Assembly: GCA_965221955.1 (NCBI GenBank)
Contig: CBDCTA010000029.1
Span: 512,001-576,000, forward strand
From: Gammaproteobacteria bacterium
GTDB taxonomy: Bacteria; Pseudomonadota; Gammaproteobacteria; UBA4575
Direction: 5' to 3'
DNA length: 64,000 nucleotides
Both the position numbers and the translations under genes were made by a program. Under the pieces are notes generated by a model. It ran no database searches. It was not told where the DNA came from and worked only from the letters and a program-made list of their open reading frames with translations. Below, piece after piece: positions 36,347-54,950 of the stretch. Numbering within the stretch: position 1 is the stretch's first letter; each line of letters starts with the position of its first letter.

Positions 36347-36347
36347 C

Positions 36348-36473
36348 AAAGAAGTCCTGATTTAAATTGATACTTCGTTAAAAATTATTCTCAATATCGT
36401 TCGTGTATGTATTAATACACGTCACTCATTTCGAAAATTTTTGTCTCGTCTCAAACTAAATCAAAACTTCTTT
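36348..36473 (+). repeat. Palindromic TIR element, copy A (fills secF/suhB gap)
   Basis: Ends AAAGAAGTCCTGATTTA / TAAATCAAAACTTCTTT (15/17 complementary); central GTGTAT..ATACAC hairpin; core 36376-36454 closely matches 40965-41041. Confidence 0.85.
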
Positions 36474-37260
36474 AGGTTTTGTTATTTAAGGTTTGTAAAA
36501 TCAAACGAAACAATTTCGTATTTGCTGCCACTATATTTCCTGTTTCTAGGTGTGAATGACCGCCTTGCGTGTCCCCCACTAATCCACCCGCTTCTTGCAC
36601 AATTAAACAGCCTGCCGCAACGTCCCAAGTGTTAAGGCCGTATTCCCAAAATCCATCAACACGTCCTGCAGCCACATAAGCAAGATCAAGTGCTGCGGAC
36701 CCGGCACGGCGTATTCCTGAAGTGTGCAACATCAATTCTTTGAGTGATGCTAAGTAACGGTCAATATTTTGATTTTCTCGAAATGGAAATCCAGTGGCGA
36801 GTAATGCGCCCTCAAAACTCGTTAATTTTGAAACTCTGATTTTACGATCATTTAATGAAGCGCCGTTACCGCGCCCTGCACAAAATAATTCATCTTTGAA
36901 GGGGTCATAAATTACTGCAACTTCTAGTCGATCTTTATGTTTCAGAGCAATTGAAACAGAATAGTGTGGAAAACCACGTAAAAAATTAGTTGTGCCATCA
37001 AGTGGGTCGATAATCCATTGGAATTCATCATTATTGCCACTGCAACGATTACCACTTTCCTCGGCGAGAATGCTGTGTTGTGGGTATGCGCGGTGAATAA
37101 CATTAATAATTTCTTGTTCCGCTTTGAAATCGACTTCGCTGACAAAGTCATTTTTTTCTTTCGTTTGAATAGATAAAGAATGCACGCGTGACATATTGCG
37201 GAAAATAATTTTTCCCGCTTCACGAGCGGCTTCAATTGCAATGTTCAGAGTAGCTTGCAT
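36472..37260 (-). CDS. suhB: Inositol monophosphatase / Nus factor SuhB
   Basis: WIIDPLDGTTNF, RR.GSAALDLAYVA.GR.DG, WDVAAG; start placed at MQATLNIA (37260), the usual SuhB N-terminus. Confidence 0.95.
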   Translation of the reverse strand: MQATLNIAIEAAREAGKIIFRNMSRVHSLSIQTKEKNDFVSEVDFKAEQEIINVIHRAYPQHSILAEESGNRCSGNNDEFQWIIDPLDGTTNFLRGFPHYSVSIALKHKDRLEVAVIYDPFKDELFCAGRGNGASLNDRKIRVSKLTSFEGALLATGFPFRENQNIDRYLASLKELMLHTSGIRRAGSAALDLAYVAAGRVDGFWEYGLNTWDVAAGCLIVQEAGGLVGDTQGGHSHLETGNIVAANTKLFRLILQTLNNKT

Positions 37261-37298
37261 ATAAACAGATATTATGAAATTGATCGCGCAGCATAGCA

Positions 37299-37315
37299 TT
37301 GGCAAGTAAATTGCG
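37299..37315 (+). promoter_or_regulatory. Putative sigma-54 (-24/-12) promoter
   Basis: TTGGCAAGTAAATTGCG: GG-N10-GC with TGGCA and TTGC; predicted +1 near 37326. Confidence 0.5.
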
Positions 37316-37322
37316 TATACAC

Positions 37323-37420
37323 TTATGTACATGGAAGTACTGTATGCCGGTTTTGCACGACTGCATGGATGCAGGAGATAGAACGAAGCAGGATGCTAGA
37401 GTCGAGGAGCAAAAACCGGC
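37323..37420 (+). repeat. Nested GGA-hairpin cassette (copy F); candidate Csr/Rsm-type small RNA or leader
   Basis: Outer 49-bp unit 43/49 identical to reverse complement of 47943-47991; 48-bp inner unit inserted in its CAGGAG loop; five GGA motifs. Confidence 0.75.
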
Positions 37421-37468
37421 GTTTTAAAAAAAGTATCTCTTCTAGCTAATTAGTAGCTACCCATAGTC

Positions 37469-38215
37469 GTGAATAAACCATATAAAATTAAAATCGTCTT
37501 GGTCGAACCATCACACCCTGGAAATATTGGGGCAGCTGCACGTGCAGCTAAGACAATGTGCATTGAAAATTTGGTGTTAGTGAAGCCAGCAGAATTTCCT
37601 AGTGGCCAAGCGCGAGCGAGAGCAACAGGTGCTTTAGATGTGCTAGAGCGTGCTGAGATATGTGATACGTTAAGTGCAGCAATTGCAGATTGCACTTTTG
37701 TGGTAGGTGCGAGTGCACGTGTTCGTGGATTACAATGTCCTGACATTGCTCCTGATGCATTGGGTGATAAAGTATGGAAAGAAGTAGAGCAGGGGAATGT
37801 AGCAATTGTGTTTGGACGAGAGAGCAGTGGGTTATCAAATGAAGAATTAGATCAATGTCATTTCTTAACAACGATACCTGCAAACTGGGAGTTTAGTTCG
37901 CTCAATATTGCATCCGCTGTGCAAGTGATTTGTTATGAAATCTATAAGGCCTATCTAAATAAAAGTAATACTAAAAATGTTTCCGATATATCTGGTGATA
38001 CGGATGAATTAGCAACCGCTGAAGAAGTTGAACACCTATTGGTACACATGCAGCAAGTATTGCAAGAGATCGAGTTTTTTGATCCTAAACAACCTAAATT
38101 GTTAATGCGCCGCTTACGACAACTTTACTGTCGTGCACGATTGTCGCGTGTAGAAACAAATATCTTGCGCGGCATTCTCAGTGCAACTCAAAAATACAAG
38201 CGTAATGCAGACTAA
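37469..38215 (+). CDS. trmJ: tRNA (C32/U32-2'-O)-methyltransferase TrmJ
   Basis: SHPGNIGAAARA.KTM, FGRE.SGL.NEEL, SSLN; suhB/trmJ/iscR synteny. Confidence 0.93.
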   Translation: MNKPYKIKIVLVEPSHPGNIGAAARAAKTMCIENLVLVKPAEFPSGQARARATGALDVLERAEICDTLSAAIADCTFVVGASARVRGLQCPDIAPDALGDKVWKEVEQGNVAIVFGRESSGLSNEELDQCHFLTTIPANWEFSSLNIASAVQVICYEIYKAYLNKSNTKNVSDISGDTDELATAEEVEHLLVHMQQVLQEIEFFDPKQPKLLMRRLRQLYCRARLSRVETNILRGILSATQKYKRNAD

Positions 38216-38301
38216 TTTCCATATTTTTATAAAGGTTATCAATCCTGGTTTTTAAGCTCCCTACCCATGGGGATAGTGAAGCGAACAAACCGCCTATCTA
38301 T

Positions 38302-38328
38302 AATACCTGAGTAACTTACTGGGTTATT
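38302..38328. promoter_or_regulatory. IscR type-1 operator
   Basis: Imperfect palindrome AATACCTGAGTAACTTACTGGGTTATT directly upstream of iscR. Confidence 0.75.
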
Positions 38329-38380
38329 TGTTATACTTACAGTCTCGTAACTGAGCGGATTTTGATAAAGGCGGTACTGT

Positions 38381-38851
38381 ATGAAACTGAGCACAAAAGG
38401 GCGTTATGCTGTGACAGCGATGTTTGATATTGCATTGCACAATCAAACGGGTCCGGTTTCCTTGTCAGATATAGCTGATCGACAAGGTATTTCATTGTCG
38501 TATTTAGAGCAATTGTTTACACGTTTACGACAGCAAGGACTGGTGAAAAGTACACGAGGACCTGGTGGCGGCTATTCACTTGCCATCGATTCTGAACAAA
38601 TTGCGATTTCAGATGTAATTGATGCCGTTGATGAAAACGTCGATGCGACACGTTGCGGTGGTAAAGCCGATTGTCAAAACCATCAACGTTGTTTAACTCA
38701 TGATTTATGGGAAAACTTGAGTGGTGAAATCAGAAGCTATCTCTCAAACATTAGTCTAGCTCAAGCAGTGAGCGATTTAAGTGTTCGTAAAGTAGCGAGT
38801 CGTCAGGATCTGAGTAATAACCAACAAGTTCATCCTGTTGAGTTTAGTTAA
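38381..38851 (+). CDS. iscR: Fe-S cluster assembly regulator IscR
   Basis: [31 protein letters not shown]-x5-C-x5-C.THDLW. Confidence 0.97.
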
Positions 38852-38890
38852 GGCGAGTTTAGTTAAAAAATTTATTGAAGGTAAAGCAAA

Positions 38891-40115
38891 GTGACAGATG
38901 TAAAACTACCCATCTATTTAGATTACAGTGCGACTACGCCAGTTGATGAGCGAGTGGCACAAGCGATGATGGATTGTTTAACCAAAGAAGGTAACTTCGG
39001 TAACCCCGCATCACGCAGTCATAGCTTTGGTTGGGATGCAGACAAGGCCGTTGAAGAAGCGCGAGCTAATGTTGCGGCACTCATTAATGCTAATCCTAAA
39101 GAAATTATTTGGACCAGTGGTGCAACAGAGTCTGATAATTTAGCCATTAAAGGTGCGGCGCATTTTTATCAAAAAAATGGTAAGCATTTAATCACCTGCA
39201 AAACCGAACATAAGGCAGTTTTAGATACTTGTCGTCAGCTTGAGCGAGAAGGATTTGAGGTTACCTATTTAGAGCCGCGTAATAATGGTTTGATTGATTT
39301 AGAAGATTTAAAAGCTGCAATTCGTGATGACACCATTTTGATTTCGATTATGCATGTGAATAATGAAATCGGAGTGATTCAGGATATTAAAGGCATTGGT
39401 GAAATCACACGCGAACGCAAAATTATTTTTCATGTGGATGCGGCGCAAAGTCCCTGGGAAAGTACCAGTTGATGTGGAAGAAATGAATGTAGATTTAATG
39501 AGCCTATCTGCACATAAAGTATATGGCCCTAAAGGTATTGGAGCTTTATATGTTCGCAGAAAACCACGTGTACGTATTGAAGCGCAGATTCATGGTGGTG
39601 GCCATGAGCGTGGTATGCGTTCTGGTACGTTGGCTACACATCAAATTGTAGGCATGGGCGAAGCATTTCGGATCGCTAAAGAAGAAATGGCTGCAGATAA
39701 CGAACGAATTTTAATGTTGCGCAATCGTTTATTAAATGGCCTTAAAGATATGGAAGAAATCTATATTAATGGTGACCTTGAACAGCGTATTCCGGGTAAC
39801 CTAAATGTTAGTTTTAACTTCGTCGAAGGTGAAAGTTTAATTATGGCGCTGAAAGATATTGCAGTGTCTTCCGGGTCTGCATGTACAAGTGCATCACTTG
39901 AGCCAAGTTATGTATTGCGCGCATTAGGACGAGATGACGAACTTGCACATAGCTCAATTCGCTTCACTATTGGTCGTTTTACAACGGTCGAAGAAGTGGA
40001 TTATGCGATTGAGTTAATTAGAAAAGCGGTGATTAAATTGCGCGATCTTTCACCTCTGTGGGATATGTATAAAGAAGGGATCGATCTTAAATCGATCGAG
40101 TGGGCCGCGCATTAA
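38891..40115 (+). pseudogene. iscS: Cysteine desulfurase IscS split by a +1 frameshift (probably a sequencing error)
   Basis: YLDYSATTP...HVDAAQSP in one frame, [24 protein letters not shown] in the next; removing one C at 39452-39454 gives a 407-aa ORF. Confidence 0.93.
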
Positions 40116-40170
40116 TTATTTTGATTTTTGATTAGGAATAATAAGTAGGAAATATTAGGAGACGATAACC

Positions 40171-40590
40171 ATGGCATATAGTGACAAAGTACTAGATCAC
40201 TACGAAAATCCACGCAACGTAGGATCTTTTGAAAAAGATGATCCCAATGTGGGCACCGGTATGGTAGGTGCACCTGCATGTGGTGATGTGATGAAATTAC
40301 AAATTAAAGTAGGTAATGACGGCATAATTGAAGACGCTAAATTTAAAACCTACGGTTGTGGCTCTGCGATTGCTTCATCTAGCTTACTTACCGAATGGGT
40401 AAAAGGTAAAACGCTAGAACAAGCGAGTGAAATTAAAAATACCGATATCGCTGAAGAACTAGCACTTCCACCAGTTAAAATTCATTGTTCAGTTTTAGCA
40501 GAAGATGCAATCAAAGCTGCTATTACTGATCTTAAATCTAAAGCTGATGGCTCAGCAGAAGATAATCAACAACAGAAGAAAATTGCTTAA
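40171..40590 (+). CDS. iscU: Fe-S scaffold IscU
   Basis: YSDKVLDHYENPRNVG, GAPACGD, GCGSA, LPPVKIHCS. Confidence 0.98.
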   Translation: MAYSDKVLDHYENPRNVGSFEKDDPNVGTGMVGAPACGDVMKLQIKVGNDGIIEDAKFKTYGCGSAIASSSLLTEWVKGKTLEQASEIKNTDIAEELALPPVKIHCSVLAEDAIKAAITDLKSKADGSAEDNQQQKKIA

Positions 40591-40599
40591 TCATTAGTT

Positions 40600-40923
40600 A
40601 TGTCTATCTCGCTAACTGAAAGTGCAGCTACACACGTAAAAAGTTATCTTGAAAAAAGAGGTAAAGGTGTTGGTGTGCGGTTAGGAGTGAAAACCACGGG
40701 CTGTTCTGGTATGGCATACACCATAGAATTTGCAGACCAAATTGAAGATGAAGATCAAGTTTTTGAAGACAAAGGCGTTAAGGTTATCGTTGACCCTAAA
40801 AGCATGGTCTATCTTGGCGGCACAGAACTCGATTTTACTCGTGAAGGATTGAATGAGGGCTTTAAGTTTACAAATCCAAACGAGAAAGAGAGATGCGGGT
40901 GTGGAGAAAGCTTCAGTGTGTGA
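40600..40923 (+). CDS. iscA: Fe-S assembly protein IscA
   Basis: GCSG.AY, NPN....CGCGESF. Confidence 0.97.
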
Positions 40924-41071
40924 GGAAACTTTGAATTATTCTGCCTTAGTTTAATTGTTATGGTCGTTAAAAAATAATCACAAATCGTTCATGTATATTT
41001 AATACACATCACTCATTTCGATATTTTTTGCCTCGTCTCAACCGCTTCACTAATAAATCAAAGTTCCTTCA
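40921..41071 (+). repeat. Palindromic TIR element, copy B (iscA/hscB)
   Basis: Ends TGAGGAAACTTTGAATTATT / AATAAATCAAAGTTCCTTCA; core matches copy A; left end includes the iscA TGA. Confidence 0.85.
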
Positions 41072-41123
41072 GCAAAACTAAATTTTTTAGATAAGTTAGA
41101 AACTTCTTTAAGACCCTAAATAA

Positions 41124-41666
41124 ATGAATATTGATCTTACTCGAAGCTATTTCGAGCTATTCGGTTTTGATGAAGATTATTCAATTGATCAAGAACAGTT
41201 AGCAGAGAAATATCGAGCCTTGCAAAGCGAATTGCATCCTGATCGCTTTGCAAACGCAAGCGATCAAGAGCGTCGTGTTTCGGTACAAAATACAGCATAT
41301 GTAAACGAGGCTTATGCAACATTAAAAAGTGATTTAAAACGTGCGCATTATTTACTGCAATTGAGTGATATTGAATTCAACGCGGATGCTGAAACATCAA
41401 GTGATGCAGAATTTTTAATGCAAACAATGGAATTGCATGAAAAAGTAGATGAAGCAAGTAGTGCAGAACAACCATTACAGGTGCTCGATAAATTGTCTAT
41501 ACAGTTGAAGCAAGATCAACAAAATCTTATAGAGCAATTTGCTAGTCAATTTAAGGTGGATGATATGCCTGCTGCAAAAGATACTGCTCTTAAACTACAG
41601 TTCTATGAACGCTTGACTAATCAAGTGCGTAAGCTACAAGAAAAAATAGAAGAAGAGTTGTTGTAA
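41124..41666 (+). CDS. hscB: Co-chaperone HscB
   Basis: YFELFG, HPD J-domain, N.AY.TL, FLM..MEL. Confidence 0.96.
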   Translation: MNIDLTRSYFELFGFDEDYSIDQEQLAEKYRALQSELHPDRFANASDQERRVSVQNTAYVNEAYATLKSDLKRAHYLLQLSDIEFNADAETSSDAEFLMQTMELHEKVDEASSAEQPLQVLDKLSIQLKQDQQNLIEQFASQFKVDDMPAAKDTALKLQFYERLTNQVRKLQEKIEEELL

Positions 41667-43538
41667 ATGGCGCTTTTGCAAATATCAGAACCTGGTCAAT
41701 CAACAGCCCCACATGAGCATCGATTGGCAGCTGGAATTGATCTTGGTACGACAAATTCCTTGGTTGCAACGGTGCGCAGTGGTGTAGCCGAAACACTCGC
41801 AGATGAAAACGGCGAACACCTTTTGCCTTCAGTGGTGCGCTATATAAGTAACGATGAAATCGAGGTTGGAAAAGCCGCAATCTCACAGGCTGCGGTAGAC
41901 CCATTGAATACCTTGGCATCGGTTAAACGTATCATGGGGAGGTCGGTCAAAGATCTAGCTACATTAGAAGGCTATCTTCCCTATAAATTTAGTGATGATG
42001 TCAGCAATGTACCACGTATTGAAACGATTGCAGGGCCAGTTACACCAATTGAAGTTTCAGCTGAAATCTTAAAGACTTTGCGAGAACGTGCCGAAGCGAG
42101 CTTGGGCGGCGAGTTGAAAGGCATAGTGATTACCGTACCTGCCTATTTTGATGATGCGCAGCGCCAAGCCACTAAAGATGCAGCAACGCTAGCCGGTTTA
42201 AATGTATTTCGTTTGTTAAATGAGCCTACTGCCGCTGCGGTTGCATATGGGCTCGATCAAAAAGCAGAAGGCATCACTGCTATTTATGATTTGGGTGGTG
42301 GCACTTTTGATATTTCCATTTTAAAGCTCACCAAAGGTGTGTTTGAAGTACTTTCCACGGGTGGTGATACCGCTCTAGGTGGTGATGATTTTGACCGCGA
42401 GATTGCTGCTTGGGTTTTAACGCAAGCCAATCTTGATGCCAGTGATGATCATCAAATGATGCGGCGCTTGATGAAAGAGGCACGTCGCGTTAAAGAAGAG
42501 TTAAGTAATGAAGAAGAAGTGCTTATCAGTGTGAAGTTAAATTTAGAGGATAATTTCGAAACTATATTAACTCGCCAACAATTTGAAGAACTAATTGAAG
42601 CACATATTAATAAAACTATTGCTTGGTGTCGTAAAACTATTCGCGAAGCAGGTGTTGATGCTAGTGAAGTTCAGCATGTAGTGATGGTGGGTGGTTCAAC
42701 GCGTACACCTTTTGTGCGCGAAAAAGTTGCTGAGTTTTTTGGTAATCCACCGTTAATTGATATTGATCCTGATAAAGTCGTCGCGATTGGTGCAGCACTG
42801 CAGGCTGATAAACTTGCAGGTAATAATCCTGATGAAGATATGCTGTTGTTAGATGTTCTACCTTTGTCATTAGGCATTGAAACAATGGGAGAATTGGTTG
42901 AAAAAATTATCGAGCGTAATACTGTTATTCCAGTTACCCGGGCACAAAAATTTACGACTTTTAAAGATGGGCAAACGGCAATGCGTATACACGTATTGCA
43001 GGGTGAGCGCGAAAAAGTTTCAGACTGTCGCTCGCTTGCGACGTTTGATTTAACCGGTATTCCACCTATGGTAGCAGGTGCAGCTCATATTCAAGTTACT
43101 TTCCAAGTGGATGCCGACGGCCTTCTTAGTGTTAGCGCAGAGGAACTAAGCAGTGGAGTGCGCGCAAGTGTTGAAGTGAAACCTTCGTATGGTCTTAGTG
43201 ATACCGAAATTGAGACAATGTTAAAAGCTTCTTTTGAGCATGCAGAAGAGGATATGCGAATAAGAATGCTTGCTGAGCAACAAGTAGAGGCAGATCGAGT
43301 TTTAGAAGCATTACGATCCGCTTTAGCGAAAGATGGCTCATTATTAACCGAAGAAGAGTCCGCTAAAATACAGCGAGCTAAAAGTGTTTTATTGCAAGCA
43401 CGTAATGGTAATGACGAAGAGAAAATTAAACAAGCGATTAAAGCGCTTGAAAGTGACAGCGAAGAATTTATTGCACGACGTATGAATCGTAGTGTGCAGC
43501 AAGTGATGAAAGGTCACAAGCTCGAAGAATTTGAATAA
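41667..43538 (+). CDS. hscA: Chaperone HscA
   Basis: [38 protein letters not shown]. Confidence 0.97.
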
Positions 43539-43565
43539 CAAGCATTGGTACAAAGGAATTAAGCG

Positions 43566-43904
43566 GTGCCTAAAATTACATTTAAACCTCATGAAGAAAT
43601 TTGCCCAGAAGGCAAAGTGATCGAGGTAGAATCTGGTATCAGTATTTGTGATGCGGCTTTAAGTAATAAGATTGAAATAGAACATGCATGTGAGAAGTCG
43701 TGTGCGTGTACAACCTGTCATGTCTATGTGCGTGAAGGGTTAGATTCCTTAGCTGAGGCTGAAGAAAATGAGGAGGATTATCTTGATAAGGCTTGGGGTT
43801 TGGAGCCCGATTCTCGTTTGAGTTGTCAGGCGATTGTGGGTGAAGAAGATTTGGTGATTGAAATTCCAAAGTACACTATCAATATGGTTTCCGAAAACCA
43901 CTGA
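43566..43904 (+). CDS. fdx: ISC 2Fe-2S ferredoxin
   Basis: HACEKSCACTTCH, SRLSCQ, IPKYTIN. Confidence 0.97.
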   Translation: MPKITFKPHEEICPEGKVIEVESGISICDAALSNKIEIEHACEKSCACTTCHVYVREGLDSLAEAEENEEDYLDKAWGLEPDSRLSCQAIVGEEDLVIEIPKYTINMVSENH

Positions 43905-44028
43905 AAATGCGTATTTATGTCTCAATATGTCGTTGTTACAGTTTTTTCCAATGCTCATTTACAATCTAGTAAACTGCGCTTCTCAAAAACTGTGCGCCTA
44001 ATTTCGAGACAAAATCCACTATTTTCAG
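43901..44028 (+). repeat. Palindromic element, copy C (fdx/iscX; different terminal arms, same core)
   Basis: Ends CTGAAAATGCGTATTTATGTCTC / GAGACAAAATCCACTATTTTCAG; core CAATGCTCATTTAC..GTAAACTGCGCTT like copy E; left end includes the fdx TGA. Confidence 0.75.
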
Positions 44029-44072
44029 CGCCCTTGTTGTAACAAAGTCTCATCATAGTCGAGGATGTAAAT

Positions 44073-44273
44073 ATGCAATTAAAATGGACGGATTCGTTGG
44101 ATATAGCCATCGCTTTAGATGAAGCACACCCTGATGTGGACCCTCAATATGTGAGGTATACGGACTTACATGCCTGGATTTGTGCCCTTGAGGAATTTGA
44201 TGATGAGCCTGAAGCTTCCAATGAAAAAATTCTCGAGGCGATTCAGATGGCCTGGTTGGATGAACGTGACTGA
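44073..44273 (+). CDS. iscX: Fe-S assembly protein IscX
   Basis: LKWTD..DIAI.L...[21 protein letters not shown]. Confidence 0.96.
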
Positions 44274-44463
44274 TTGGCTATTTAGCCCCTCAGATAACTG
44301 GCATTTTTGCCTTCCTTTGCGAACCGCTAAAACATTGCTTCCTGCTGCTTGCTGGGAGTAGAATTCACTGAAAAATATAAGGAAAATTACGGATAAATCA
44401 ATCTGTAAGCCTTATAAGTTAGATTTCATATTAATTACAACAATTATCTAGGAACATATATTT

Positions 44464-46067: not shown

Positions 46068-46840
46068 CGCTGCATAAGTTAATTTTGTTGAGCGTAATAG
46101 TGCTGATTTTATCTGCATGTGCGACCACTTCTAGCACAGATGAACCTCTGGGACAAAACCAAAAAGCTGCAGCAATTAATGTGCAGTTAGGCGTGAATTA
46201 TCTCGGCCAGGGCGAATTTGAGTTAGCAGATAAAAAATTACGTCGTGCTTTGAAACAAGATCCAAGTTCAGCAACTGCTCATTGGGTGTTTGCTTTGTTG
46301 CAGGAAAGACTGGGAGAAGAAGCTGTTGCAGAAAAACATTTTCGTAAAGCGATCTCTTTAGACCCTAAAGATTCTAAGGCGCATAACAATTATGGCACGT
46401 TCTTATGTAAGCAAGATCGGGTTGAAGAAGCAGAAAAAGAATTTCTTCGCGCGATTGAAAATCCTTTATACGCTGATGCAGCTTCTGCCTACGCAAATGC
46501 GGGTATTTGTGTTTTGAAAGTTCCGGATAAGGTAAAAGCGGAAGAATATTTTCAAAAGTCATTAGGCTTAAATGCTTCGCATCGTTCTGCTTTGTACCAA
46601 ATGGCATTGTTAACCTTTGAGCGTCAGGAGTTTGTGCAGACTTCATATTATATGCAGCGTTACGAGAGCGTAGCGAAACATAATTCCCAATCTCTGTGGG
46701 TCGCATATCAAACAGAGGCCAGTCTTGGTAACCAAGGTAAAGCAGACGACTATGCGCATCAGTTGAAAAGATTATATCCAGCTTCTCAGGAAGCGAGATT
46801 GTTAGCAGAAAGTTATTGGAATGCAGGAAGAAAAAATTAA
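46064..46840 (+). CDS. pilW: Type IV pilus TPR lipoprotein PilW/PilF
   Basis: Lipobox LSAC, TPR repeats, NNYG.FLC; position after rlmN. Confidence 0.9.
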   Translation: MTLHKLILLSVIVLILSACATTSSTDEPLGQNQKAAAINVQLGVNYLGQGEFELADKKLRRALKQDPSSATAHWVFALLQERLGEEAVAEKHFRKAISLDPKDSKAHNNYGTFLCKQDRVEEAEKEFLRAIENPLYADAASAYANAGICVLKVPDKVKAEEYFQKSLGLNASHRSALYQMALLTFERQEFVQTSYYMQRYESVAKHNSQSLWVAYQTEASLGNQGKADDYAHQLKRLYPASQEARLLAESYWNAGRKN

Positions 46841-47759
46841 TTTCGAGACACAAGAGTCGGCTAAAAAGTCGATTGAAAAAAGCGTAAGTATCGGCGCTTT
46901 GCTCGTGAACGCGCGTAAAGCTGCTTCATTAAGTCAAGTCGATGTTGCTGAACAAATAAATTTACCTTTGCGTATTGTAAAGGCGCTTGAAGCGGATGAT
47001 TTTGATAACTTACCAGAAGCTACTTATATCCGTGGTTATTTGCGCAACTATGCACGTATTGTTGGAATCAATGCAGATCTATTAATTAACACTTTTAAAG
47101 AACAGCATCATCAAGAGCCTGAGGTGATTACTCCAATACGCTCTAAACAAAGTTATGATCCTGCAATACTATGGAGCACGGCCGCAGTATTTACTATTCT
47201 TGTTGGTTTAGTGGTTACATGGTGGTTTGAATCTAATCCTGTAACTACACCGAGTGTTGAACTTGTTAGTAATGAAAGTACTGCGAAAACGAATACTGAG
47301 ATGAAGCAGGATTTTAAGCACCCTCTCGGTAGTAAAGATGAGTCGGCAGTAGCTGAAGTCCATGATGAACTCCCAGTGCCGATGATTGATCACCAAACAT
47401 CAGAAATGAATAATCCCAGCGTTGTTGATGTCATCACTGAAGATCAGCAACAAGCGATGGAAGATGAATCACGTAACCCTAATCTGGTGAGTCTAAATGA
47501 TGGTGCGCAGATGCTTACTGTCACCTATGTAGAAAAAAGTTGGACAGAAATCAGAGATGCCGATGCAAATACCCTTATGCAAGGTTTGATTGAGCCCGGA
47601 GTCGTGAGAAACTTAAGAGGAAAGCCGCCTTTTGAGGTTTTTCTTGGTAATGCACCCGGCGTAGTAATAGAAGTTAATGGGCTCTATTTTGATCATTCGC
47701 AATATAATAGAAGTAATCGCACAGCACGATTTCAGGTATCGAGCAGCTCACCCAATTAA
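46821..47759 (+). CDS. rodZ: Cell-shape protein RodZ
   Basis: HTH with YIRGYLRNYAR, TM helix, SW.EI.DA...GNAP.V. Confidence 0.92.
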   Translation: MQEEKINFETQESAKKSIEKSVSIGALLVNARKAASLSQVDVAEQINLPLRIVKALEADDFDNLPEATYIRGYLRNYARIVGINADLLINTFKEQHHQEPEVITPIRSKQSYDPAILWSTAAVFTILVGLVVTWWFESNPVTTPSVELVSNESTAKTNTEMKQDFKHPLGSKDESAVAEVHDELPVPMIDHQTSEMNNPSVVDVITEDQQQAMEDESRNPNLVSLNDGAQMLTVTYVEKSWTEIRDADANTLMQGLIEPGVVRNLRGKPPFEVFLGNAPGVVIEVNGLYFDHSQYNRSNRTARFQVSSSSPN

Positions 47760-47782
47760 ATTATTCTTTGCAGAGCCACTCA

Positions 47783-48032
47783 AAGAGGCTCTGATTTATT
47801 AATGCAATGGCTGATATTAGGCAAAAAATGTCGACAAATCTGCCAGGAGCAGATTTGGAAAGCTATGCTAGCCAAAGGCCGAGCGCCAGGAAGGTGCGAG
47901 TCAAATAAGCAATATGTATTGATTTATACATTAGCGATTTGATCAGTTTTTGCTACTGCAAAACTGGTATACAGTACTTCCATATACATAAGATCATTTT
48001 TAACAACATATCAGAATAAATCAGAGTTTCTT
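47783..48032 (-). repeat. Composite palindromic element, copy D (inverted copy-E scaffold carrying two inserted cassettes)
   Basis: TIR AAGAGGCTCTGATTTATT / AATAAATCAGAGTTTCTT; arms match reverse complement of copy E; inserts at 47831-47900 and 47943-47991. Confidence 0.85.
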
Positions 48033-48038
48033 CCAATA

Positions 48039-49328
48039 ATGTCTAAGCGAATACAATCCATTCGCGGCATGCACGACGTGCTGCCGCCAGACAGTAATAA
48101 GTTACGTGCCATCGAGCATGCTACTCAGGATATTTTACAGCAATATGGGTATCAAGAAATTCGCATGCCTATATTGGAACAAACAGAACTGTTTAAACGT
48201 TCGCTGGGTGAAGTAACAGATATCGTAGAAAAAGAAATGTACACTTTCGAAGATCGCAATGGCGATAGCCTAACTTTGCGTCCTGAAGGTACTGCTAGTT
48301 GCGTGCGTGCTGGGATTCAACATGGATTTATTTACGGTCAACCGCAAAGACTTTGGTATTGCGGACCATTTTTTAGACACGAACGTCCACAAAAAGGACG
48401 TTATCGACAATTTCACCAGCTTGGTGTGGAAACTTTTGGCTATGTTGGTCCTGATATTGATGCAGAGTTAATTATATTAAGTGCACAGATGTGGAAGAAA
48501 ATTAATCTTCCCATGCAACCAAAGTTAGAAATTAATAGCTTAGGTTCGTTACAAGCTCGAAAAAGTTATCGTGAAAAGCTCATTCATTACTTGCAGCAAC
48601 ATGAAGATAAGCTAGATAAAGAAGCGCGACAACGTTTACAAACCAATCCAATGCGAATTCTGGATAGTAAAAATCCTGACATGCAAGAGATCATTCAAAA
48701 TGCGCCGAGTCTTTTAGAACACTTGGATGTTGAATCTGCTGAGCATTTTTTACAGTTGCAAAAAATATTAGATACAGTAGGTATTGAATATCAAATTAAT
48801 CCACGCTTAGTGCGTGGTTTAGATTATTACAGTAAAACTGTATTTGAATGGATCGCAGATGGCTTAGGTGCACAAGCGACTATTTGTGCAGGCGGCCGTT
48901 ATGATGGATTGGTAGAGCAGTTGGGAGGCAAGCCCTGTCCCGCAGCGGGTTTTGCGATTGGTTTAGAGCGATTGGCTTCACTGCTAGAGGATAATCAAGC
49001 AGGGGATCAATTATCTAGTTCTTCAATAGATGTTTATATGGTCCTGATGGGCGAAGCGGCTGAAATTGCAGGTACTCAACTAGCCAGTCAGTTACGCAGC
49101 CAGCTGCCCACCTCTTCTGTGATAACAAATTGTGGTGGCGGTAGTATAAAATCACAAATGAAGCGAGCCGATAAGTCCCATGCAAGGCTGGCTTTTATTT
49201 TGGGCGAAGATGAATTGAAAGATCAAAATGTCACAGTGAAATTCTTGCGCGAAAAACGTGAGCAAGAAACTGTGGCACAAAATGAGTTAGCTGCTTTTTT
49301 GACAGCTTATCTTAGCAATAAACCTTAA
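48039..49328 (+). CDS. hisS: Histidine-tRNA ligase
   Basis: RGM.D.LP, KEMY.F, LRPEGTA, FR.ERPQKGRYRQF.Q, LVRGLDYY, GGRYDGL. Confidence 0.98.
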   Translation: MSKRIQSIRGMHDVLPPDSNKLRAIEHATQDILQQYGYQEIRMPILEQTELFKRSLGEVTDIVEKEMYTFEDRNGDSLTLRPEGTASCVRAGIQHGFIYGQPQRLWYCGPFFRHERPQKGRYRQFHQLGVETFGYVGPDIDAELIILSAQMWKKINLPMQPKLEINSLGSLQARKSYREKLIHYLQQHEDKLDKEARQRLQTNPMRILDSKNPDMQEIIQNAPSLLEHLDVESAEHFLQLQKILDTVGIEYQINPRLVRGLDYYSKTVFEWIADGLGAQATICAGGRYDGLVEQLGGKPCPAAGFAIGLERLASLLEDNQAGDQLSSSSIDVYMVLMGEAAEIAGTQLASQLRSQLPTSSVITNCGGGSIKSQMKRADKSHARLAFILGEDELKDQNVTVKFLREKREQETVAQNELAAFLTAYLSNKP

Positions 49329-49348
49329 GGATATATAAGAGAAACGAC

Positions 49349-49996
49349 ATGGCCGAGTACGAAACGGAAGAACAACAAGTTGAAGCGATTAAAGAGTGGT
49401 GGAAACAGAATGGAGTAGCAGTGATTAGTGGTGCAGTGTTAGGTATTGCTGCGTTAGTCGGTTGGCGTGGATGGGGCTGGCATCAAGAAAAACAAGCTAA
49501 TGAGGCTTCTGATATTTTTGCAGTAGTTCATGAAGCGATTAATAAAATTGACACAACTGCATTAACCGAACAAGCTAAAATTTTACGTGAAAATTATGCT
49601 TCAACACCTTATGCATCTTTGGCTGTATTACACGAAGCAAAAATACAAAACGATAAAGGTGATAATACAGCTGCAGAAGAAAGTTTGCGCTGGGTGCTAA
49701 AAAATAGCAAACAAGACAGTGTACAAGACATTGCACGTTTGCGTTTAGCACGCTTACTACTTGCAGAAAATAAAATTGATGAAGCACAAACGATGGTGAA
49801 CGCAAGTACGTCTGAGGCCTATGCATCATTAGCAAACGAAATTCGTGGTGACATTTTTGTTGCTAAAGGGGAACTTGACCAGGCTAAAAAAGCTTATGAT
49901 CAAGCAATGCAATCTGCGAGCGGTAGTGGAGTCGAGTTTTTGGAATTAAAACGTAACGATTTAGGTATTTCTTCTGGAACGCAGCATGATACTTAA
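49349..49996 (+). CDS. yfgM: Ancillary SecYEG subunit YfgM
   Basis: YETEEQQVEAIK.WW..NG, TM, ARLRLAR, E..GD. Confidence 0.93.
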   Translation: MAEYETEEQQVEAIKEWWKQNGVAVISGAVLGIAALVGWRGWGWHQEKQANEASDIFAVVHEAINKIDTTALTEQAKILRENYASTPYASLAVLHEAKIQNDKGDNTAAEESLRWVLKNSKQDSVQDIARLRLARLLLAENKIDEAQTMVNASTSEAYASLANEIRGDIFVAKGELDQAKKAYDQAMQSASGSGVEFLELKRNDLGISSGTQHDT

Positions 49997-51173
49997 TAAA
50001 AGTATCAAGATTATCTTCATTTTATTTCTTGCAAGCTGTTTACAGCTTGCGGGTTGTAGTGTGCTTAAAAAACCGAAAGAGTGGTTTGAAAAAGAAGAGG
50101 ATCCAAGAGAGCCAACAAAACTTACTAAAATTGAAACTGAAAAAATCAGTGTTCAGCAAGTTTGGCGGAACTCAGTTGGTAATCTAGAAGAATCCTACAA
50201 CAAGATTCGCCCGTACATCACTGATCAACGCGTATATCTTTGTGATGCTGAAGGTCGTGTAGAAGCTTGGAAACGTGAAGATGGAAAGCGTTTATGGTCG
50301 ATAAATCTGAAAGAAAATATTTCTGGTGGTGTGAATGGTGGTGAAGGAATTATTGCTATAGGCACTGAAAATGGAGAAGTGATCGCGCTGGGTGCTGAAG
50401 ATGGTGTAGAACGCTGGCGAGCTAAAGTACCTAGTGAAGTAATGTCACTGTCAGAAGCAAAGTATGGTGTTATTGCAGTGCGTACCAATGACAGCAAAGT
50501 GCATGCATTGGAATTAAACTCTGGTAATGTCAGCTGGAGTGCTGGTAGAGGGGCGCCGCCCTTAACATTGCGTGGTGCGAGTCAACCTAAAGTAGTAGGA
50601 GATGTAGTATTAGTAGGTTTTGATGATGGCAAGCTCATGGCTATAAGCCTTCGTGATGGTGAGCCTTTGTGGGAGGTGTCAGTTTCAACACCAAAAGGGC
50701 GTTCTGAGCTCGAACGCATGTCAGATGTTGATGGTGAATTTGCTTATCTAGATGGTATTGTGTTTGCGGCAAGTTTCAACGGTCGTGTGGTTGCCATTGA
50801 CTTAGACACAGGAAAAACATTATGGAGCAAAGATCTTTCTTCTTATGCGGGTTTAGGGGTGGATAGAGAACGAGTGTACGTAACCGATTCTGATGACAGT
50901 GTTTGGGGTTTAGATATTTCTTCAGGTGCAACATTATGGCGGCAAGATAAACTCTTGTATAGAGAACTTACTGCTCCGCAAGTAATGGGTAACTACGTTA
51001 TGACTTGTGATTTCAAAGGCTATTGTCATTGGTTGTCTAAAGAAGATGGGAAAATTATTGGTCGCGATGATATTGCTGGAGATGCTATCGAAGTGGCACC
51101 TGTGGTTATCAATCAGCGTGCTTACGTATTAGCAAACAACGGCTCACTTTCAGTTCTGCAATACCGAAAGTAA
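49986..51173 (+). CDS. bamB: Outer membrane assembly factor BamB
   Basis: Lipobox LAGC, PQQ-like propeller repeats, G.SELER..DVD, G..LW.Q. Confidence 0.93.
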   Translation: MILNKSIKIIFILFLASCLQLAGCSVLKKPKEWFEKEEDPREPTKLTKIETEKISVQQVWRNSVGNLEESYNKIRPYITDQRVYLCDAEGRVEAWKREDGKRLWSINLKENISGGVNGGEGIIAIGTENGEVIALGAEDGVERWRAKVPSEVMSLSEAKYGVIAVRTNDSKVHALELNSGNVSWSAGRGAPPLTLRGASQPKVVGDVVLVGFDDGKLMAISLRDGEPLWEVSVSTPKGRSELERMSDVDGEFAYLDGIVFAASFNGRVVAIDLDTGKTLWSKDLSSYAGLGVDRERVYVTDSDDSVWGLDISSGATLWRQDKLLYRELTAPQVMGNYVMTCDFKGYCHWLSKEDGKIIGRDDIAGDAIEVAPVVINQRAYVLANNGSLSVLQYRK

Positions 51174-51207
51174 TTGCTAATTTTTATTTACCTACGAGTG
51201 TTTAGCT

Positions 51208-52617
51208 ATGAAACCTGTCATTGCACTAGTGGGTCGCCCCAATGTTGGTAAATCAACTTTATTTAATTATCTCACCAAATCTAATCGAGCATTAGTTGCA
51301 GACCAACCAGGTCTCACGCGTGATCGTATTTACGGTATAACTCGGCGTTTCGATGATCGTTACATCGTAATTGATACCGGCGGGATTGCACCGCCAGATG
51401 ATTCCAAAGATCAAGACAGAATGAATCTTGCGATTAGCAACCAAGCATGGATGGCAATTGAAGAGGCGGACTTTGTTTGTTTTCTTGTGGACGGTACGGA
51501 AGGTTTAGTGCCTCAAGATGAAGAAGTATTTTCTAAGCTTAGATCGGCAAATAAGAAAACCGTAGTTTTGGTGAACAAGGCCGATGCCGGTGCGCATAAT
51601 ATGCTGTCTAGTGATTTTTATTCGCTTGGCGCAGAGCAAGTCTATGAGATTTCAGCCAAATCTGGGAAGGGTGTAAGAGACGTATTCAGTAAATTAGATG
51701 AGCAAATTCCGCCTATAGAGGAAGTTGCTGAAGAAGAAGGTGAAGCAAAAGTAATTAAAGTTGCTTTGGTGGGTCGTCCAAATGTAGGGAAATCAACCTT
51801 AGCGAATGCATTGATAGGAGAAGAGCGTTTTGTTACTTCCAATATTCCTGGTACCACACGCGATAGTATTTCGGTGCGCATCGAAAAATTTGGAACACAG
51901 TTTGAGTTAATTGATACTGCAGGTGTTCGTCGACGCAGTAAAGTGCAGGACATGGTAGAAAAATTCAGTGTCGTAAAAACCATTCAAGCCATAGAGGATG
52001 CACACGTTGTTATTTTAATGTTAGATGGCACACAAGAGTTTGCGGAACAAGATGCAAGGTTAGCAGGCATGGTATTAGAAAGTGGGCGTGCAGTAGTGGT
52101 GGCAATAAATAAAACTGACATCAGTTCTAACGAAGATCGCAAGGAGATTCAAAAGGGCTTTGATCTGAAATTACGCTTTTTAGAATATGCAGAAAAGTTG
52201 TTTATTTCAGCTAAAAACAAAGAAGGTGTGACTAAATTACTACGTGCCGCTGTGCGGGCATACAAGTCTGCAAATATAGAAGTGAGTACTGCAGAAATAA
52301 ACCGAATATTAGAAAATGCTCTTGAAAGCTTTCAGCCGCCATTAGTGCGAGGGCGAAGAATTAAACTGAAATATGCAGCGCAAGTAGGCACGAATCCGCC
52401 TACGATTGCTATTCATGGTAATCAAATCGGCAGAATCCCGGGCTCTTATAAGCGCTATCTTGAAAACTACTTTCGCAAAACATTAAAACTAGTCGGCACA
52501 CCAATTTTATTAGTATTCAAACAGCCTGATAACCCTTATGCAGGTAAACGCAATAAACTCACACCAAGACAAGAACGTTCTAGAAAACGCATGCTGAAAA
52601 AAGTGAAGCGTAATTGA
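51208..52617 (+). CDS. der: Ribosome biogenesis GTPase Der
   Basis: Two GRPNVGKS P-loops, PG.TRD, DTGG/DTAG, KH-like C-terminus. Confidence 0.98.
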   Translation: MKPVIALVGRPNVGKSTLFNYLTKSNRALVADQPGLTRDRIYGITRRFDDRYIVIDTGGIAPPDDSKDQDRMNLAISNQAWMAIEEADFVCFLVDGTEGLVPQDEEVFSKLRSANKKTVVLVNKADAGAHNMLSSDFYSLGAEQVYEISAKSGKGVRDVFSKLDEQIPPIEEVAEEEGEAKVIKVALVGRPNVGKSTLANALIGEERFVTSNIPGTTRDSISVRIEKFGTQFELIDTAGVRRRSKVQDMVEKFSVVKTIQAIEDAHVVILMLDGTQEFAEQDARLAGMVLESGRAVVVAINKTDISSNEDRKEIQKGFDLKLRFLEYAEKLFISAKNKEGVTKLLRAAVRAYKSANIEVSTAEINRILENALESFQPPLVRGRRIKLKYAAQVGTNPPTIAIHGNQIGRIPGSYKRYLENYFRKTLKLVGTPILLVFKQPDNPYAGKRNKLTPRQERSRKRMLKKVKRN

Positions 52618-52657
52618 AATAAATAATGTTTAACTGGCTAAATAATAAAATAGCTGC

Positions 52658-53362
52658 TTACAAGCCAAACTTAGGCAATATGATTTGTAAATACAAATCT
52701 GCAATTTTTTGATGACCGTCATTATTGGGATGAAAACCATCTTTTTTGCTGACTAGCATATCGCCAGGTTGGGCTTTGAAAAAATCTACAATAGGTACAT
52801 TATATTTTTGTGCTTGGCGCGTGATGGCTTGATTGAAAGCAGCTACTCGTTCAACTGTCACATCTCGATCTGGGTCTTCTCTAAATTTTTTAATTTGTGT
52901 TAAGTCTGGAAGATTCATGATCACTACAAATGCATTACTTTTGCTGCGCAAGCGACTTAGAATGTAAGCAAGATCTTCTTCAAATTCATCCACATCATTA
53001 CCGCCAATTAAATCATTTGCACCGGTCCAGATAGTGACTAGATTAATTTCTGTATCACGTTTGAGTGCTGCTTTTGCAGTTTTCTTAATTGCGGGAATAT
53101 CTGCAGTGGGAATACCGAGATTAAGCAAATTTACTTTTCTGCCACGATCTTCGAATCCGTCTTTAATCCGGTATACATAGCCGCGAGTGATGGGTTCAGC
53201 GCCTATGCCAAAGGCATCACTTGCACCTAGGGCAACATAGTTAACCGGTGGTAAATCATTCGCTGGACCTTGTTTGATATCGTCATCATCGGAGCTGCTG
53301 GCACAGCTTGCGATCAAAAGAACGCTGACAACTGGAATGAGCAAAGATCGTAATTTTTTCAT
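52658..53362 (-). CDS. SGNH/GDSL hydrolase lipoprotein
   Basis: Lipobox IASC, YVALGAS, GANDL, DGFHPN. Confidence 0.88.
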   Translation of the reverse strand: MKKLRSLLIPVVSVLLIASCASSSDDDDIKQGPANDLPPVNYVALGASDAFGIGAEPITRGYVYRIKDGFEDRGRKVNLLNLGIPTADIPAIKKTAKAALKRDTEINLVTIWTGANDLIGGNDVDEFEEDLAYILSRLRSKSNAFVVIMNLPDLTQIKKFREDPDRDVTVERVAAFNQAITRQAQKYNVPIVDFFKAQPGDMLVSKKDGFHPNNDGHQKIADLYLQIILPKFGL

Positions 53363-53485
53363 AATAGCCCCTGGGAGAAGTGTTTCTATTATATATGTGT
53401 CAAACCACCACGTGGGTGATTATCTAGAAGTGGACTATATAGGAGTGTGAAAATTCAGAAAATTTTCACCTTTGTAGCAACAACT

Positions 53486-53866
53486 TTATTCGGTTTGTGA
53501 TTTATTCAGCATGATTTTTGCGTTATGCATGCGCTTATAAAGAGGAGCGCATTCGGGAAGTACGGTATCGGTAAATTCTTGCCTAGACATTTTATGGTCG
53601 GAGGCATATTTTTTAACAAGCTTTATATACATATCGCAAATCGCGATTTCGTTCTGATAGTTTTTTTCTTTTCTTGATAATACTGCTGCTTGTTCAAAAT
53701 ATTTGGGCGCTGGCATGATACCGGTATCTAGAGATTTTTCAATTTCGCCTCTGCAACAATCCACAACTGTATTGATATCCGTTTCATCTGGATTTTTTGA
53801 TTGAGTCTGTAAAGTTTTTAATGGAATTATTTTTTGGATAATAGTACTTAGCTTTTCCGTAGCCAT
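53486..53866 (-). CDS. Hypothetical TPR-like protein
   Basis: PAPKYFEQAAVLSRKEKNYQNEIAIC helical motif; AAGGA SD. Confidence 0.7.
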   Translation of the reverse strand: MATEKLSTIIQKIIPLKTLQTQSKNPDETDINTVVDCCRGEIEKSLDTGIMPAPKYFEQAAVLSRKEKNYQNEIAICDMYIKLVKKYASDHKMSRQEFTDTVLPECAPLYKRMHNAKIMLNKSQTE

Positions 53867-54074
53867 CGTGTGTTCCTTTCAGATGTTAGGAATATATTCG
53901 TACAAAAGAATATGGCTGCGTAGGTTATCCCGATAGACGGACCGTTAGATTGTATGAAATTCTAATGGGTTCAATGAATTTTAATTATTGATTTTTGTAA
54001 GTAATAACGTTTTTTATTGCGTTAAATGTAACGAATGAAAGTGAATAAAAATTAATTGACTGAGATTGAATGAG

Positions 54075-54272
54075 TTACTCGAGTTTATTTACGAGTCGGT
54101 ATGCGCCAATCAGAATTCCAAAGCCAACATATAAACCTAATAAAGAAATAAATAATAACAAGCCCATTTCGAAGGGAAGCAGACGTGTTTTAACAGCATA
54201 GAACAAACCAAATACCGCGCATACGAATAACATCATGGCGGCAAAGACTAAAAATACTTTTTTCTTGTTCAA
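54075..54272 (-). CDS. Small two-TM hypothetical protein
   Basis: 65 aa, two hydrophobic helices. Confidence 0.6.
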   Translation of the reverse strand: MNKKKVFLVFAAMMLFVCAVFGLFYAVKTRLLPFEMGLLLFISLLGLYVGFGILIGAYRLVNKLE

Positions 54273-54392
54273 AGTAAGGGGCCTTTTGGCATATTGATGG
54301 AAGATTTCATTTTACAGGTCTCATCCTAATTCACATGTAGGATTCAGTACCTAATAAAATCAACAAGTTAGGAGCAGGCCGCTCTAGATATG

Positions 54393-54436
54393 TTGTAAAT
54401 ATTACAAATATATTTATAATGATGTAAATACATCAT
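54393..54436 (+). promoter_or_regulatory. Promoter/operator of the TA operon
   Basis: TTGTAA-N16-TATAAT overlapped by palindromes TTGTAA-ata-TTACAA and ATGATGTA-aa-TACATCAT. Confidence 0.65.
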
Positions 54437-54441
54437 AGGAG

Positions 54442-54819
54442 ATGATCATGAGTGCACAAGTTCAAAGGCTGCCTGCTGAAGGCGAAGTGTTGAGTAAAGC
54501 CTTATTGAATAGCAAAGAACACTTGGGTTTAACCAACACAGAGCTAGGTGAAATCATCGGTAAAGACCGAACTTATTTTACGCGTTTGCGTAATCACAAC
54601 GTGCTTGAGCCTGATAGTAAAGAAGGTGAATTGGCATTGCATGTGATTCGTATTTATCGATCTTTATACGCACTAGAAGGTGGTGACCTCGAAGCGATGG
54701 AAGAGTGGTTGAATACAGCGAATAAACATTTAAACGCTATACCTAAGGAGTTGCTTAAAAATGTGCAAGGGCTTATACAAGTTACGGAATACTTAGACGC
54801 TATGCGCGGCAAAGTGTAG
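54442..54819 (+). CDS. Xre/MbcA/ParS-type antitoxin
   Basis: N-terminal HTH (LGLTNTELGEIIG), C-terminal W..T.N.HL...P..LL..VQGL..V..YLDAMRG. Confidence 0.9.
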   Translation: MIMSAQVQRLPAEGEVLSKALLNSKEHLGLTNTELGEIIGKDRTYFTRLRNHNVLEPDSKEGELALHVIRIYRSLYALEGGDLEAMEEWLNTANKHLNAIPKELLKNVQGLIQVTEYLDAMRGKV

Positions 54820-54823
54820 CACT

Positions 54824-54950
54824 GAAGTTCTGATTTATCTTGCTATGTTGTTAAAAGCTCTCTCGCAATGCTCATGTATAAGTTTATACACTCCGCTTGC
54901 TCGAGATCTTTTGCCTAATAGCAGCCACTTCGTTAATAAATCAGAACTCC
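54824..54950 (+). repeat. Palindromic TIR element, copy E (between antitoxin and toxin)
   Basis: TIR GAAGTTCTGATTTAT / ATAAATCAGAACTCC (14/15); core CTCGCAATGCTCATGTATAA-gt-TTATACACTCCGCTTGCTCGAG. Confidence 0.88.

Follow-up and report, generated by a model that had tools for sequence, protein, structure and literature searches.

The stretch of DNA analysed in this work (64,000 nucleotides, referred to as the window) corresponds to C29:512001-576000 of a gammaproteobacterial genome of 2.69 Mb in 29 contigs, and a window coordinate is the genome coordinate minus 512000. The genome assembly has a completeness of 96.6% and a contamination estimate of 4.3%. Its closest named record is an uncultured gammaproteobacterium, with an HscA 83% identical, and two of the sequencing runs with this sequence are labelled marine metagenome. 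A preliminary description, made from the letters alone, had proposed that the window holds five copies of a small palindromic element. We confirmed these copies, named A to E, at the same positions by direct reading and by searches with nhmmer and with a covariance model (R1). All five lie between open reading frames (ORFs), as had been said, and no transposase gene was found in or beside any of them. In positions 1-36000, which had been reported as free of the element, neither nhmmer nor R1 detected an additional copy; the closest one is located 1055 nt ahead of the window start.

Repeat Copies in the Window

Copy A (36348..36473, + strand) is a canonical copy of what we call type 1, matched by nhmmer at 36351-36470 and by R1 at 36346-36474 with an E value of 5.9e-20 over the whole genome. 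It starts 1 nt past the TAA of the upstream gene on the + strand (ORF end 36346) and ends 1 nt ahead of the stop of a convergent gene on the - strand. Copy B (40921..41071, +; nhmmer 40924-41065), a long type-1 variant with extra segments in both arms, is located between iscA and hscB, and the iscA stop TGA (40921-40923) abuts its left end. Copy C (43901..44028, +) lies between fdx and iscX, with the fdx stop TGA (43902-43904) inside the copy; it was detected by nhmmer at 43919-44013 (E 1.4e-8) and by R1 at 43901-44027 (E 9.2e-8). Copy D (47783..48032, -) is placed between a gene on the + strand and hisS. It is a type-1 copy in antisense, and it was rightly described as inverted and expanded: it lies on the minus strand, carries two nested inserts, measures 250 nt and is matched by nhmmer in two pieces (47786-47837 and 47974-48030). 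Copy E (54824..54950, +; nhmmer 54824-54949) is a type-1 copy with a longer right arm; it begins 4 nt past the upstream stop (54817-54819), and about 13 nt separate its end from the following ATG (54964).

The pairwise repeat search of the window linked A with B, B with E and C with E, and D in inverted orientation with B and E. Four of the copies had been said to share their ends, and the type-1 ends, GAAGYTCTGATTTA ... TAAATCAGARCTTC, are indeed present in A, D and E and, in weakened form, in B; they are missing from C. The latter had been described as keeping the core with different but still self-complementary arms, and it groups with six other loci in a subfamily 2, where the core is kept and the copies have their own self-complementary ends (seven loci including C, counted by eye in the genome alignment). 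Directly behind copy B, the segment at 41072..41095 (+) is, as judged by eye, the probable right-end remnant of an older subfamily-2 copy; it resembles, also by eye, the right ends of the subfamily-2 copies that occupy the same site in G007, G014, G002 and G013.

Size and Distribution of the Family

Searches of the whole genome extended these five copies to one dispersed family, as the preliminary description had supposed. With the five copies as queries, blastn at word size 7 gave 89 rows, and nhmmer converged after three rounds with 49 matches (E 4e-27 to 8e-4), which correspond to 47 loci once the pieces split by inserts were joined. R1, built from a hand-drawn structure on a 14-copy alignment, gave 57 matches with both strands counted. 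A chance origin is ruled out by 47 loci at such E values in 2.69 Mb. The loci are spread over 15 of the 29 contigs without forming an array, and a CRISPR or a tandem repeat was rejected on account of this dispersion. Neighbouring copies are clustered, with 9 of 35 intervals shorter than 5 kb where 2.9 were expected (P 0.002). The clusters occupy consecutive gene junctions of the same operons (C29:495783-500860, C29:548351-566949, and C29:317361-318677), and clustering of the same kind was seen in G041, a genome of another genus, with three copies within 3 kb in L152.

R1 had matches in 13 of the genus's 14 other genomes. Among 16 genomes of the class that belong to other families, 4 had a match. 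The order consists of one family, represented by 56 species genomes of 11 genera; with a cut-off of E up to 1e-6, 22 of these genomes and 7 of the genera were positive, and the matches per genome went from 0 to 55. Rfam at its gathering score found only two tRNAs in the window, and eleven copies searched with E up to 1 had no match there. No match was obtained by blastn in plasmid or phage collections, and a canonical copy searched at word size 11 and E up to 0.001 was likewise without a match among 5,426 E. coli genomes. When four family motifs were compared with the texts of bacterial papers, only unrelated primers matched. As judged by sequence, the family is not a member of ERIC or of any Rfam family.

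Position and Direction at Stop Codons

The location of the copies was analysed with gene calls defined as the longest non-overlapping ORFs. At 29 of the 47 loci the left end of the copy follows a same-strand gene, at most 8 nt past its stop codon. At a further three it lies 9-30 nt past the stop; all of these are subfamily-2 matches, which begin inside the unit, so their true gap is smaller. The right end is placed in this way behind a gene reading into the copy at only 2 of the 47 loci. In roomy spacers the copy is not centred and stays flush with the upstream stop, with gaps of 0/58 nt (copy B), 0/42 nt, and 1/66 nt. Between co-directional genes, 29 copies were sense versus 8 antisense (binomial p 0.00075). 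By eye, six of the eight antisense copies are type 1 and all six are atypical (three with the nested module 2 described below, two with arm inserts, and one truncated), and the remaining two, at C29 162497 and C29 611930, belong to subfamily 2.

Among loci of eleven other genomes, 16 of 20 matches were sense and at most 40 nt from a stop. In G041, 21 of 32 matches were at most 8 nt from a stop, in a non-random sample of loci chosen by hand to include the minority direction. Several copies overlap the last codons of the gene or supply its stop codon. The fdx stop at the site of copy C is TAA in the eight genomes where the site is empty and TGA in the four filled ones, the GA being derived from the element; at L165 of G041 the insertion changed the gene end from ...SLNK to ...SLRKP, with the stop 11 nt inside the copy. 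This rule of position and direction at stop codons is new in this analysis and is the most striking regularity of the family.

Filled and Empty Sites

The 19.9-kb stretch around the five copies aligns with all genus relatives at 68-82% identity, and each site was compared through its flanks in the fetched relatives of the genus. Site A was filled in 0/10 and empty in 10/10 relatives, and site D was filled in 0/11 and empty in 11/11 (12 rows, one genome being present twice), both copies being private to this genome. Site B was filled in 8/11 and empty in 3/11, site C was filled in 3/11 (G007, G005, and G003) and empty in 8/11, and site E was filled in 2/7 and empty in 5/7, with a stop-to-start distance of only about 8 nt in the empty cases. 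Copies are gained and lost at orthologous sites. End-like remnants are present at some "empty" sites (site D in G007, G011, and G014, and one site of G022), which suggests that spacers have been hit repeatedly or that copies decay by internal deletion. According to the preliminary description, copies fixed at orthologous sites in distant relatives would argue against mobility. The occupancy of site B and of copy C is common to several relatives, which indicates that some copies are old and fixed, whereas A and D are private.

Copies A, C, and D were also seen in contigs from public runs. A different filling was present at site B in one contig with 98.7% identity to the flanks, where 151 letters stand in place of the 204 of the window. 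Other contigs seemed to skip a copy; they are joints with short sides of 20-32 letters that link different copies, and they were read as cross-mapping.

The copies of this genome are old, with a mean identity of 69% and a maximum of 82.8%. In G041, copies at different loci are up to 97.4% identical, and three of its loci (L168, L165, and L159) are empty in the congener G022. Considering the near identity of these copies together with the three empty loci, the family has been active recently in at least one lineage. The filled and empty sites and the near-identical copies of G041 thus support the claim that the family is mobile and non-autonomous, although the mover was not found among six transposase families, as detailed below.

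The fillings of site B bear on a different explanation, namely, that the element is a domesticated RNA whose hairpin is kept for a host role in operon mRNA, where it would stabilise the 3' end, be a site of processing or act as a partial stop. A partial stop would set the ratio between upstream and downstream products, and the spread of the element would be secondary. Behind iscA, the 8 filled relatives carry different variants (type 1 in three genomes, subfamily 2 in four, and a module-2 chimera in one), and two of the three genomes without the repeat between iscA and hscB, G010 (L135) and G004 (L146), have there a short G+C-rich hairpin followed by a T-rich run, as though a hairpin of some sort were required at this place. 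Orthologues of copy C are 65-79% identical versus 48-66% for the spacer behind, and they are better conserved than it in 5/6 pairs. The covariation of the stems, the orientation of copies with the genes, and the report that ERIC is co-transcribed and able to change mRNA decay (the available part of PMC3184786) go in the same direction. We consider this explanation unlikely all the same, since A and D occur in a single genome only, most relatives lack a copy at C and at E with nothing else in its place, and related genomes hold from 0 to 55 copies. In addition, a simple scan of the five window copies found no terminator-like and no promoter-like site, on which basis a terminator or promoter function was rejected, and the Rfam searches gave no match to the element.

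Hairpin Structure and Pairing

The unit is about 120 nt long (117-122 nt in canonical copies) and folds as one long imperfect hairpin. Over all the loci of the genome it measures 85-250 nt and none is within an ORF of at least 100 aa. The spacing between conserved blocks is nearly constant, with 18-19, 22-25, 40-42, and 17 nt. Type-1 copies have inverted ends of 14-15 nt of the GAAGCTCTGATTTA type, and these form the end stem (helix 1, 80.7% paired). Going inwards, the ends are followed by a short second helix and by a conserved asymmetric internal loop, where TTC is opposite CTC beside an invariant T·G pair. The inner part consists of a long A/T-rich stem, variable in sequence between copies, and a two-pair GC/GC clamp, and the top hairpin is TGTAT/ATACA or TTTAC/GTAAA. 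Long variants have additional segments in one or both arms, and some copies carry nested inserts.

RNAalifold predicted no structure from a plain MAFFT alignment because the variable stem was out of register. The structure was therefore drawn by hand, and 38 copies from this genome and eleven relatives were re-aligned to R1. Such an alignment is fitted to the model and leans towards the structure, and the controls with slid partners carry an equal bias. In this alignment 84.1% of the cells were paired versus 73.1% in shuffles, and 38 of the 50 stem pairs showed compensated double changes, in 202 cells versus 60 in shuffles. The covariation score was 0.317; shuffles gave 0.134, and the slid-partner controls did not exceed 0.084. 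Pairing is kept through compensated changes, which agrees with the earlier proposal that structure rather than sequence is conserved. The summed RNA fold energy of 37 copies was -1043 kcal/mol for the sense strand and -1396 kcal/mol for the antisense strand. Either it is the weaker hairpin, that of the sense strand, that operons put up with, or the active form is the bottom strand of the DNA.

The five youngest copies of G041 differ at 16 internal positions, and four of these correspond to the end-stem pairs 8-130 (G-C/A-T) and 10-128 (T-A/A-T/C-G), with three compensated double changes. By a rough estimate, which was not computed, independent mutation predicts well under one double change at such divergence. 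Compensated changes in copies so young suggest that the pairing of the ends is restored fast, through strong selection or copying of one arm from the other, and they are the main hint that the hairpin, rather than a pair of protein-binding ends, is the working form.

Palindromic sites behind ORFs whose bottom strand folds better are known from integrons, where they are called attC. The copies have comparable features: they are imperfect palindromes, 120-150 nt long, that follow ORFs directly and in the same orientation, and their bottom strand folds better. They could then be attC-like sites or other boundaries of mobile gene cassettes. This is extremely improbable: the flanks are core genes in conserved order (isc operon, hisS) that align in 14/14 genus relatives regardless of the element, the copies are scattered over 15/29 contigs with no array (the integrase gene itself was not searched for), and it is the element alone that is gained or lost while the neighbouring gene stays.

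The two inserts of copy D are modules with structure of their own. Module 2 (47931..47992, -) is a nested hairpin repeat with five further matches in the genome, and it forms an inverted pair with 37322-37357. It consists of a short hairpin and then a perfect stem of 11-12 bp, and six copies of the main family carry it, nested in one arm or the other. Standing alone, it appears once, at 37322-37420 (+) of the window, in a divergent promoter region, where its own loop holds a 48-nt insert. Elsewhere in the genome it is located at C5:68415, C28:89507, C21:10256, and C29:585740. Module 3 (47828..47902, -) is a segment of 75 nt richer in G+C in the right arm of copy D; it includes a perfect 9-bp hairpin and is unique in the genome. 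It is found at the identical arm position in a copy of G005 (L137, site E) and in a copy of G041 (L172:2440-2800), so that three genomes of two genera carry it. A derivative of about 48 nt at C26 ~57000-57050 consists of nothing but the two inverted ends, and tight spacers at C6:7062, C14:33715, and C21:6293 each contain a solo end-like piece of 17-18 nt. These derivatives look like decay products of the family.

Ends, Target Site, and Mover

No direct repeats of at least 3 nt flank copies A, D or E. For copies A, D, and E and the three youngest copies of G041 there was no consistent target duplication, the relatives used being only 75-80% identical, which blurs the junctions. In a single case, L165 compared with G022, the empty site reconstructed with the guide of the protein fits a duplication of TTAA or of the inner TA. 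The flanks of eight G041 copies were mostly YTAR-like (TTAA, CTAA, CTAG, and TTAG), with left and right flanks that differ even in the youngest. A YTAR preference, which contains TAA and TAG, would help to explain the habit of lying at stop codons; it cannot explain the direction.

The genome was searched with the end motif (up to 3 mismatches) and with half-models; short solo remnants and one mini-derivative were all that turned up, and no long element bounded by these ends was among the matches. Apart from two ordinary genes present in duplicate, the long repeats of the genome are contigs that are duplicated, apparently as strain variants. Contig pairs 94-99.8% identical over 4-11 kb are C19/C3, C14/C23, C10/C29, C6/C24, C12/C13, C11/C26, and C8/C18; the assembly seems to contain more than one strain or duplicated contig ends, consistent with the contamination estimate of 4.3%. 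The duplicated genes, both 99.6% identical, are a 449-aa ORF resembling a secreted binding protein (C26:55522-56889 = C29:454582-455949) and a 380-aa ORF resembling a membrane hydroxylase/desaturase (C26:24490-25645 = C29:202067-203222). Each is a single gene whose two copies have differing surroundings, and neither is an insertion sequence.

Miniature inverted-repeat transposable elements (MITEs) have a short core enclosed by terminal inverted repeats and no gene for a transposase, and the element is built in this way. That part of the earlier classification stands; a strict MITE label is doubtful, considering that no consistent target duplication was seen and that the searches yielded no parent insertion sequence bearing such ends. 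In this 96.6%-complete genome there were no genes of the families DDE_3, IS110, rve, DDE_Tnp_1, Y1_Tnp or Transposase_31, where an unassembled insertion sequence is still possible. Y1_Tnp was found in 1/15 genus genomes. Among the 56 genomes of the order, DDE_Tnp_1 was present in 9, DDE_3 in 2, IS110 in 10, and RAYT-like genes in 10, this genome not being one of them. None of the six transposase families tested tracks the occurrence of the element. In a cross-tabulation, 16 of the 22 element-bearing genomes had neither RAYT-like nor IS110 genes; drafts may miss insertion sequences, and the 16 include G010 and G019 (one contig each) and G014 (two contigs).

These results bear on a movement similar to that of REPINs, which are long hairpins of two inverted halves, without target duplication, whose pairing is kept by compensating changes. 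The element would move as a single-stranded hairpin DNA through a RAYT/IS200-type mover or an IS110-type targeting, and its direction would be given by the replication fork. Several features resemble this: there are two halves, target duplication is missing at most sites, the whole unit is a hairpin with arms complementary even in young copies, pairing is compensated, the antisense strand folds better, and GC skew fits the direction in this genome as well as the genes do. Moreover, G041, with its young copies, has one RAYT-like gene below the cut-off (230 aa, 71 bits, the cut-off being 80) and 11-12 IS110 genes of three types; the transposase loci fetched from it include L192 and L193. We consider this movement improbable. 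The genomes free of RAYT-like and IS110 genes that bear the element, G010, G014, and G019 among them, speak against it, and 46/56 genomes of the order, this one included, lack a RAYT-like gene. No copy was found within 1.5 kb of the six fetched loci (three of them RAYT-like), so that no copy flanks the existing RAYT-like genes. Stops are abutted by the left end and not by either end (29 versus 2), a relation that holds beside the minority-strand genes of G041, and the GTAG/CGTC tags given for REP families in the available part of PMC3733652 are not at the ends of the element.

Comparison with Known Repeat Families

Longer forms of ERIC with inserts at fixed places, and compensating changes, were reportedly described by Wilson and Sharp in 2006. 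ERIC copies are imperfect palindromes of about 127 bp, intergenic and without a transposase of their own, with a TA motif at both ends of ERIC-type copies (the available part of PMC3184786). The family is thus similar to ERIC in size, palindromic build, intergenic location, and the absence of a transposase. It differs from it in having no sequence match in the E. coli genomes searched, no consistent duplication and another lineage, and the tight rule of stop codon and direction is absent from the description of ERIC in that part of PMC3184786.

The Correia or NEMIS elements of Neisseria measure 104-157 bp, have inverted ends and many copies and are transcribed with neighbouring genes; their presence or absence between strains was read as movement, and they hold promoters and an IHF site (same part of PMC3184786). 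Compared by description only, our family shares with them the size class, the inverted ends, and the variation in presence, and it differs in lacking a promoter-like site at the five copies and a demonstrated TA duplication. QMITE2 of Coxiella burnetii, as portrayed in the available part of PMC5896051, is about 190 bp long with direct repeats of 7-9 bp, is inserted at 3' ends with copies that overlap gene 3' ends by 1-10 bp, has truncated REP-like short forms and is associated with an IS110-family element; IS1111 is located within QMITE2 copies. The resemblance, again by description only, is a small hairpin repeat that overlaps the 3' ends of genes, whereas the present unit has about 120 nt without 7-9-bp direct repeats, and the IS110 loci fetched hold no copy. 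The Rickettsia palindromic elements (RPE), of which RPE-1 had been named in the preliminary description as similar in its core, have a size class of 105-146 bp (PMC3184786, in the same part), and the likeness with them is in size class and palindromic build; Rfam contains no RPE family. The present copies follow genes, and what they change in these is no more than the last few codons.

For RPE, in contrast, insertion in frame inside genes is what Ogata is said to have described in 2000.

Proposed Origin of the Element

Taking the above into account, we favour with moderate confidence, slightly above even, that the element is a small non-coding palindromic selfish repeat of the ERIC/Correia type, long mobile in a marine gammaproteobacterial order, moved in trans and borne by operons. 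An enzyme that acts in trans, on the hairpin or on the ends, would on rare occasions make a new copy; it would be none of the six transposase families tested. Insertion would prefer T-A-rich, YTAR-like sites, with TAA and TAG stops among them. Considering that the copies fill spacers between co-directional genes, they would be transcribed in operon mRNAs. Selection would then retain only the copies whose hairpin begins at the stop codon, where the terminating ribosome could open the outer stem and the folded hairpin may keep the stop codon close to the next start codon. Selection would also retain the direction that gives the weaker RNA hairpin. After a mutation, pairing would be quickly regained, either because selection acts on the hairpin or because one arm serves to correct the other. 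A host benefit at sites such as that between iscA and hscB is possible.

Several points weigh against this proposal. The support for mobility is comparative evidence only, with no mover found, and some of the "young" copies could owe their likeness to gene conversion between copies. A target duplication fits in one case (TTAA/TA) and is not seen at A, D or the three youngest copies of G041. The transcription of the copies is deduced from their position only. Mismatches of the sense strand are A·C in 105 cases versus G·T in 96, and 38 of the latter are one invariant pair; as A·C outnumber G·T, there is no sign of G·U pairs being favoured in a sense RNA, and any favoured strand would be the antisense one. 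As the two ends are alike, the direction bias is not accounted for by the ribosome and coupling model alone. In this genome the direction of genes and that of replication, taken from GC skew, fit equally well, with six discordant cases divided 3:3. In G041, four copies lie beside minority-strand genes and 4/4 follow the gene, with gaps of 0-6 nt, the leading strand being assumed there from the majority direction of the contig and not from skew. The left/right asymmetry of 29 versus 2, being defined by genes, is taken as the stronger argument, and it favours a link to genes.

A bolder reading, to which we assign only a small chance, is that a hairpin without need of a classical transposase inserts specifically, in sense, at sites of translation termination, with its arms corrected against each other during copying, and holds stop and start together so that translational coupling survives.

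Knowledge of small palindromic repeats, ERIC among them, goes back decades. The present family is an unusually clean case, with a sharp stop-codon rule, clear filled and empty sites throughout the order, young copies, and genomes without the usual transposases. With it, two questions become testable, namely, the nature of the mover of such elements and the way in which operons put up with a hairpin of 120 nt between coupled genes. For annotation, the covariance model marks gene ends and explains short C-terminal differences and changed stop codons between species. If the bolder reading were true, insertion at termination sites would be a new mode of targeting, set by gene ends rather than by DNA sequence, and a hairpin that holds stop and start together would be a new way for selfish DNA to stay harmless in operons.

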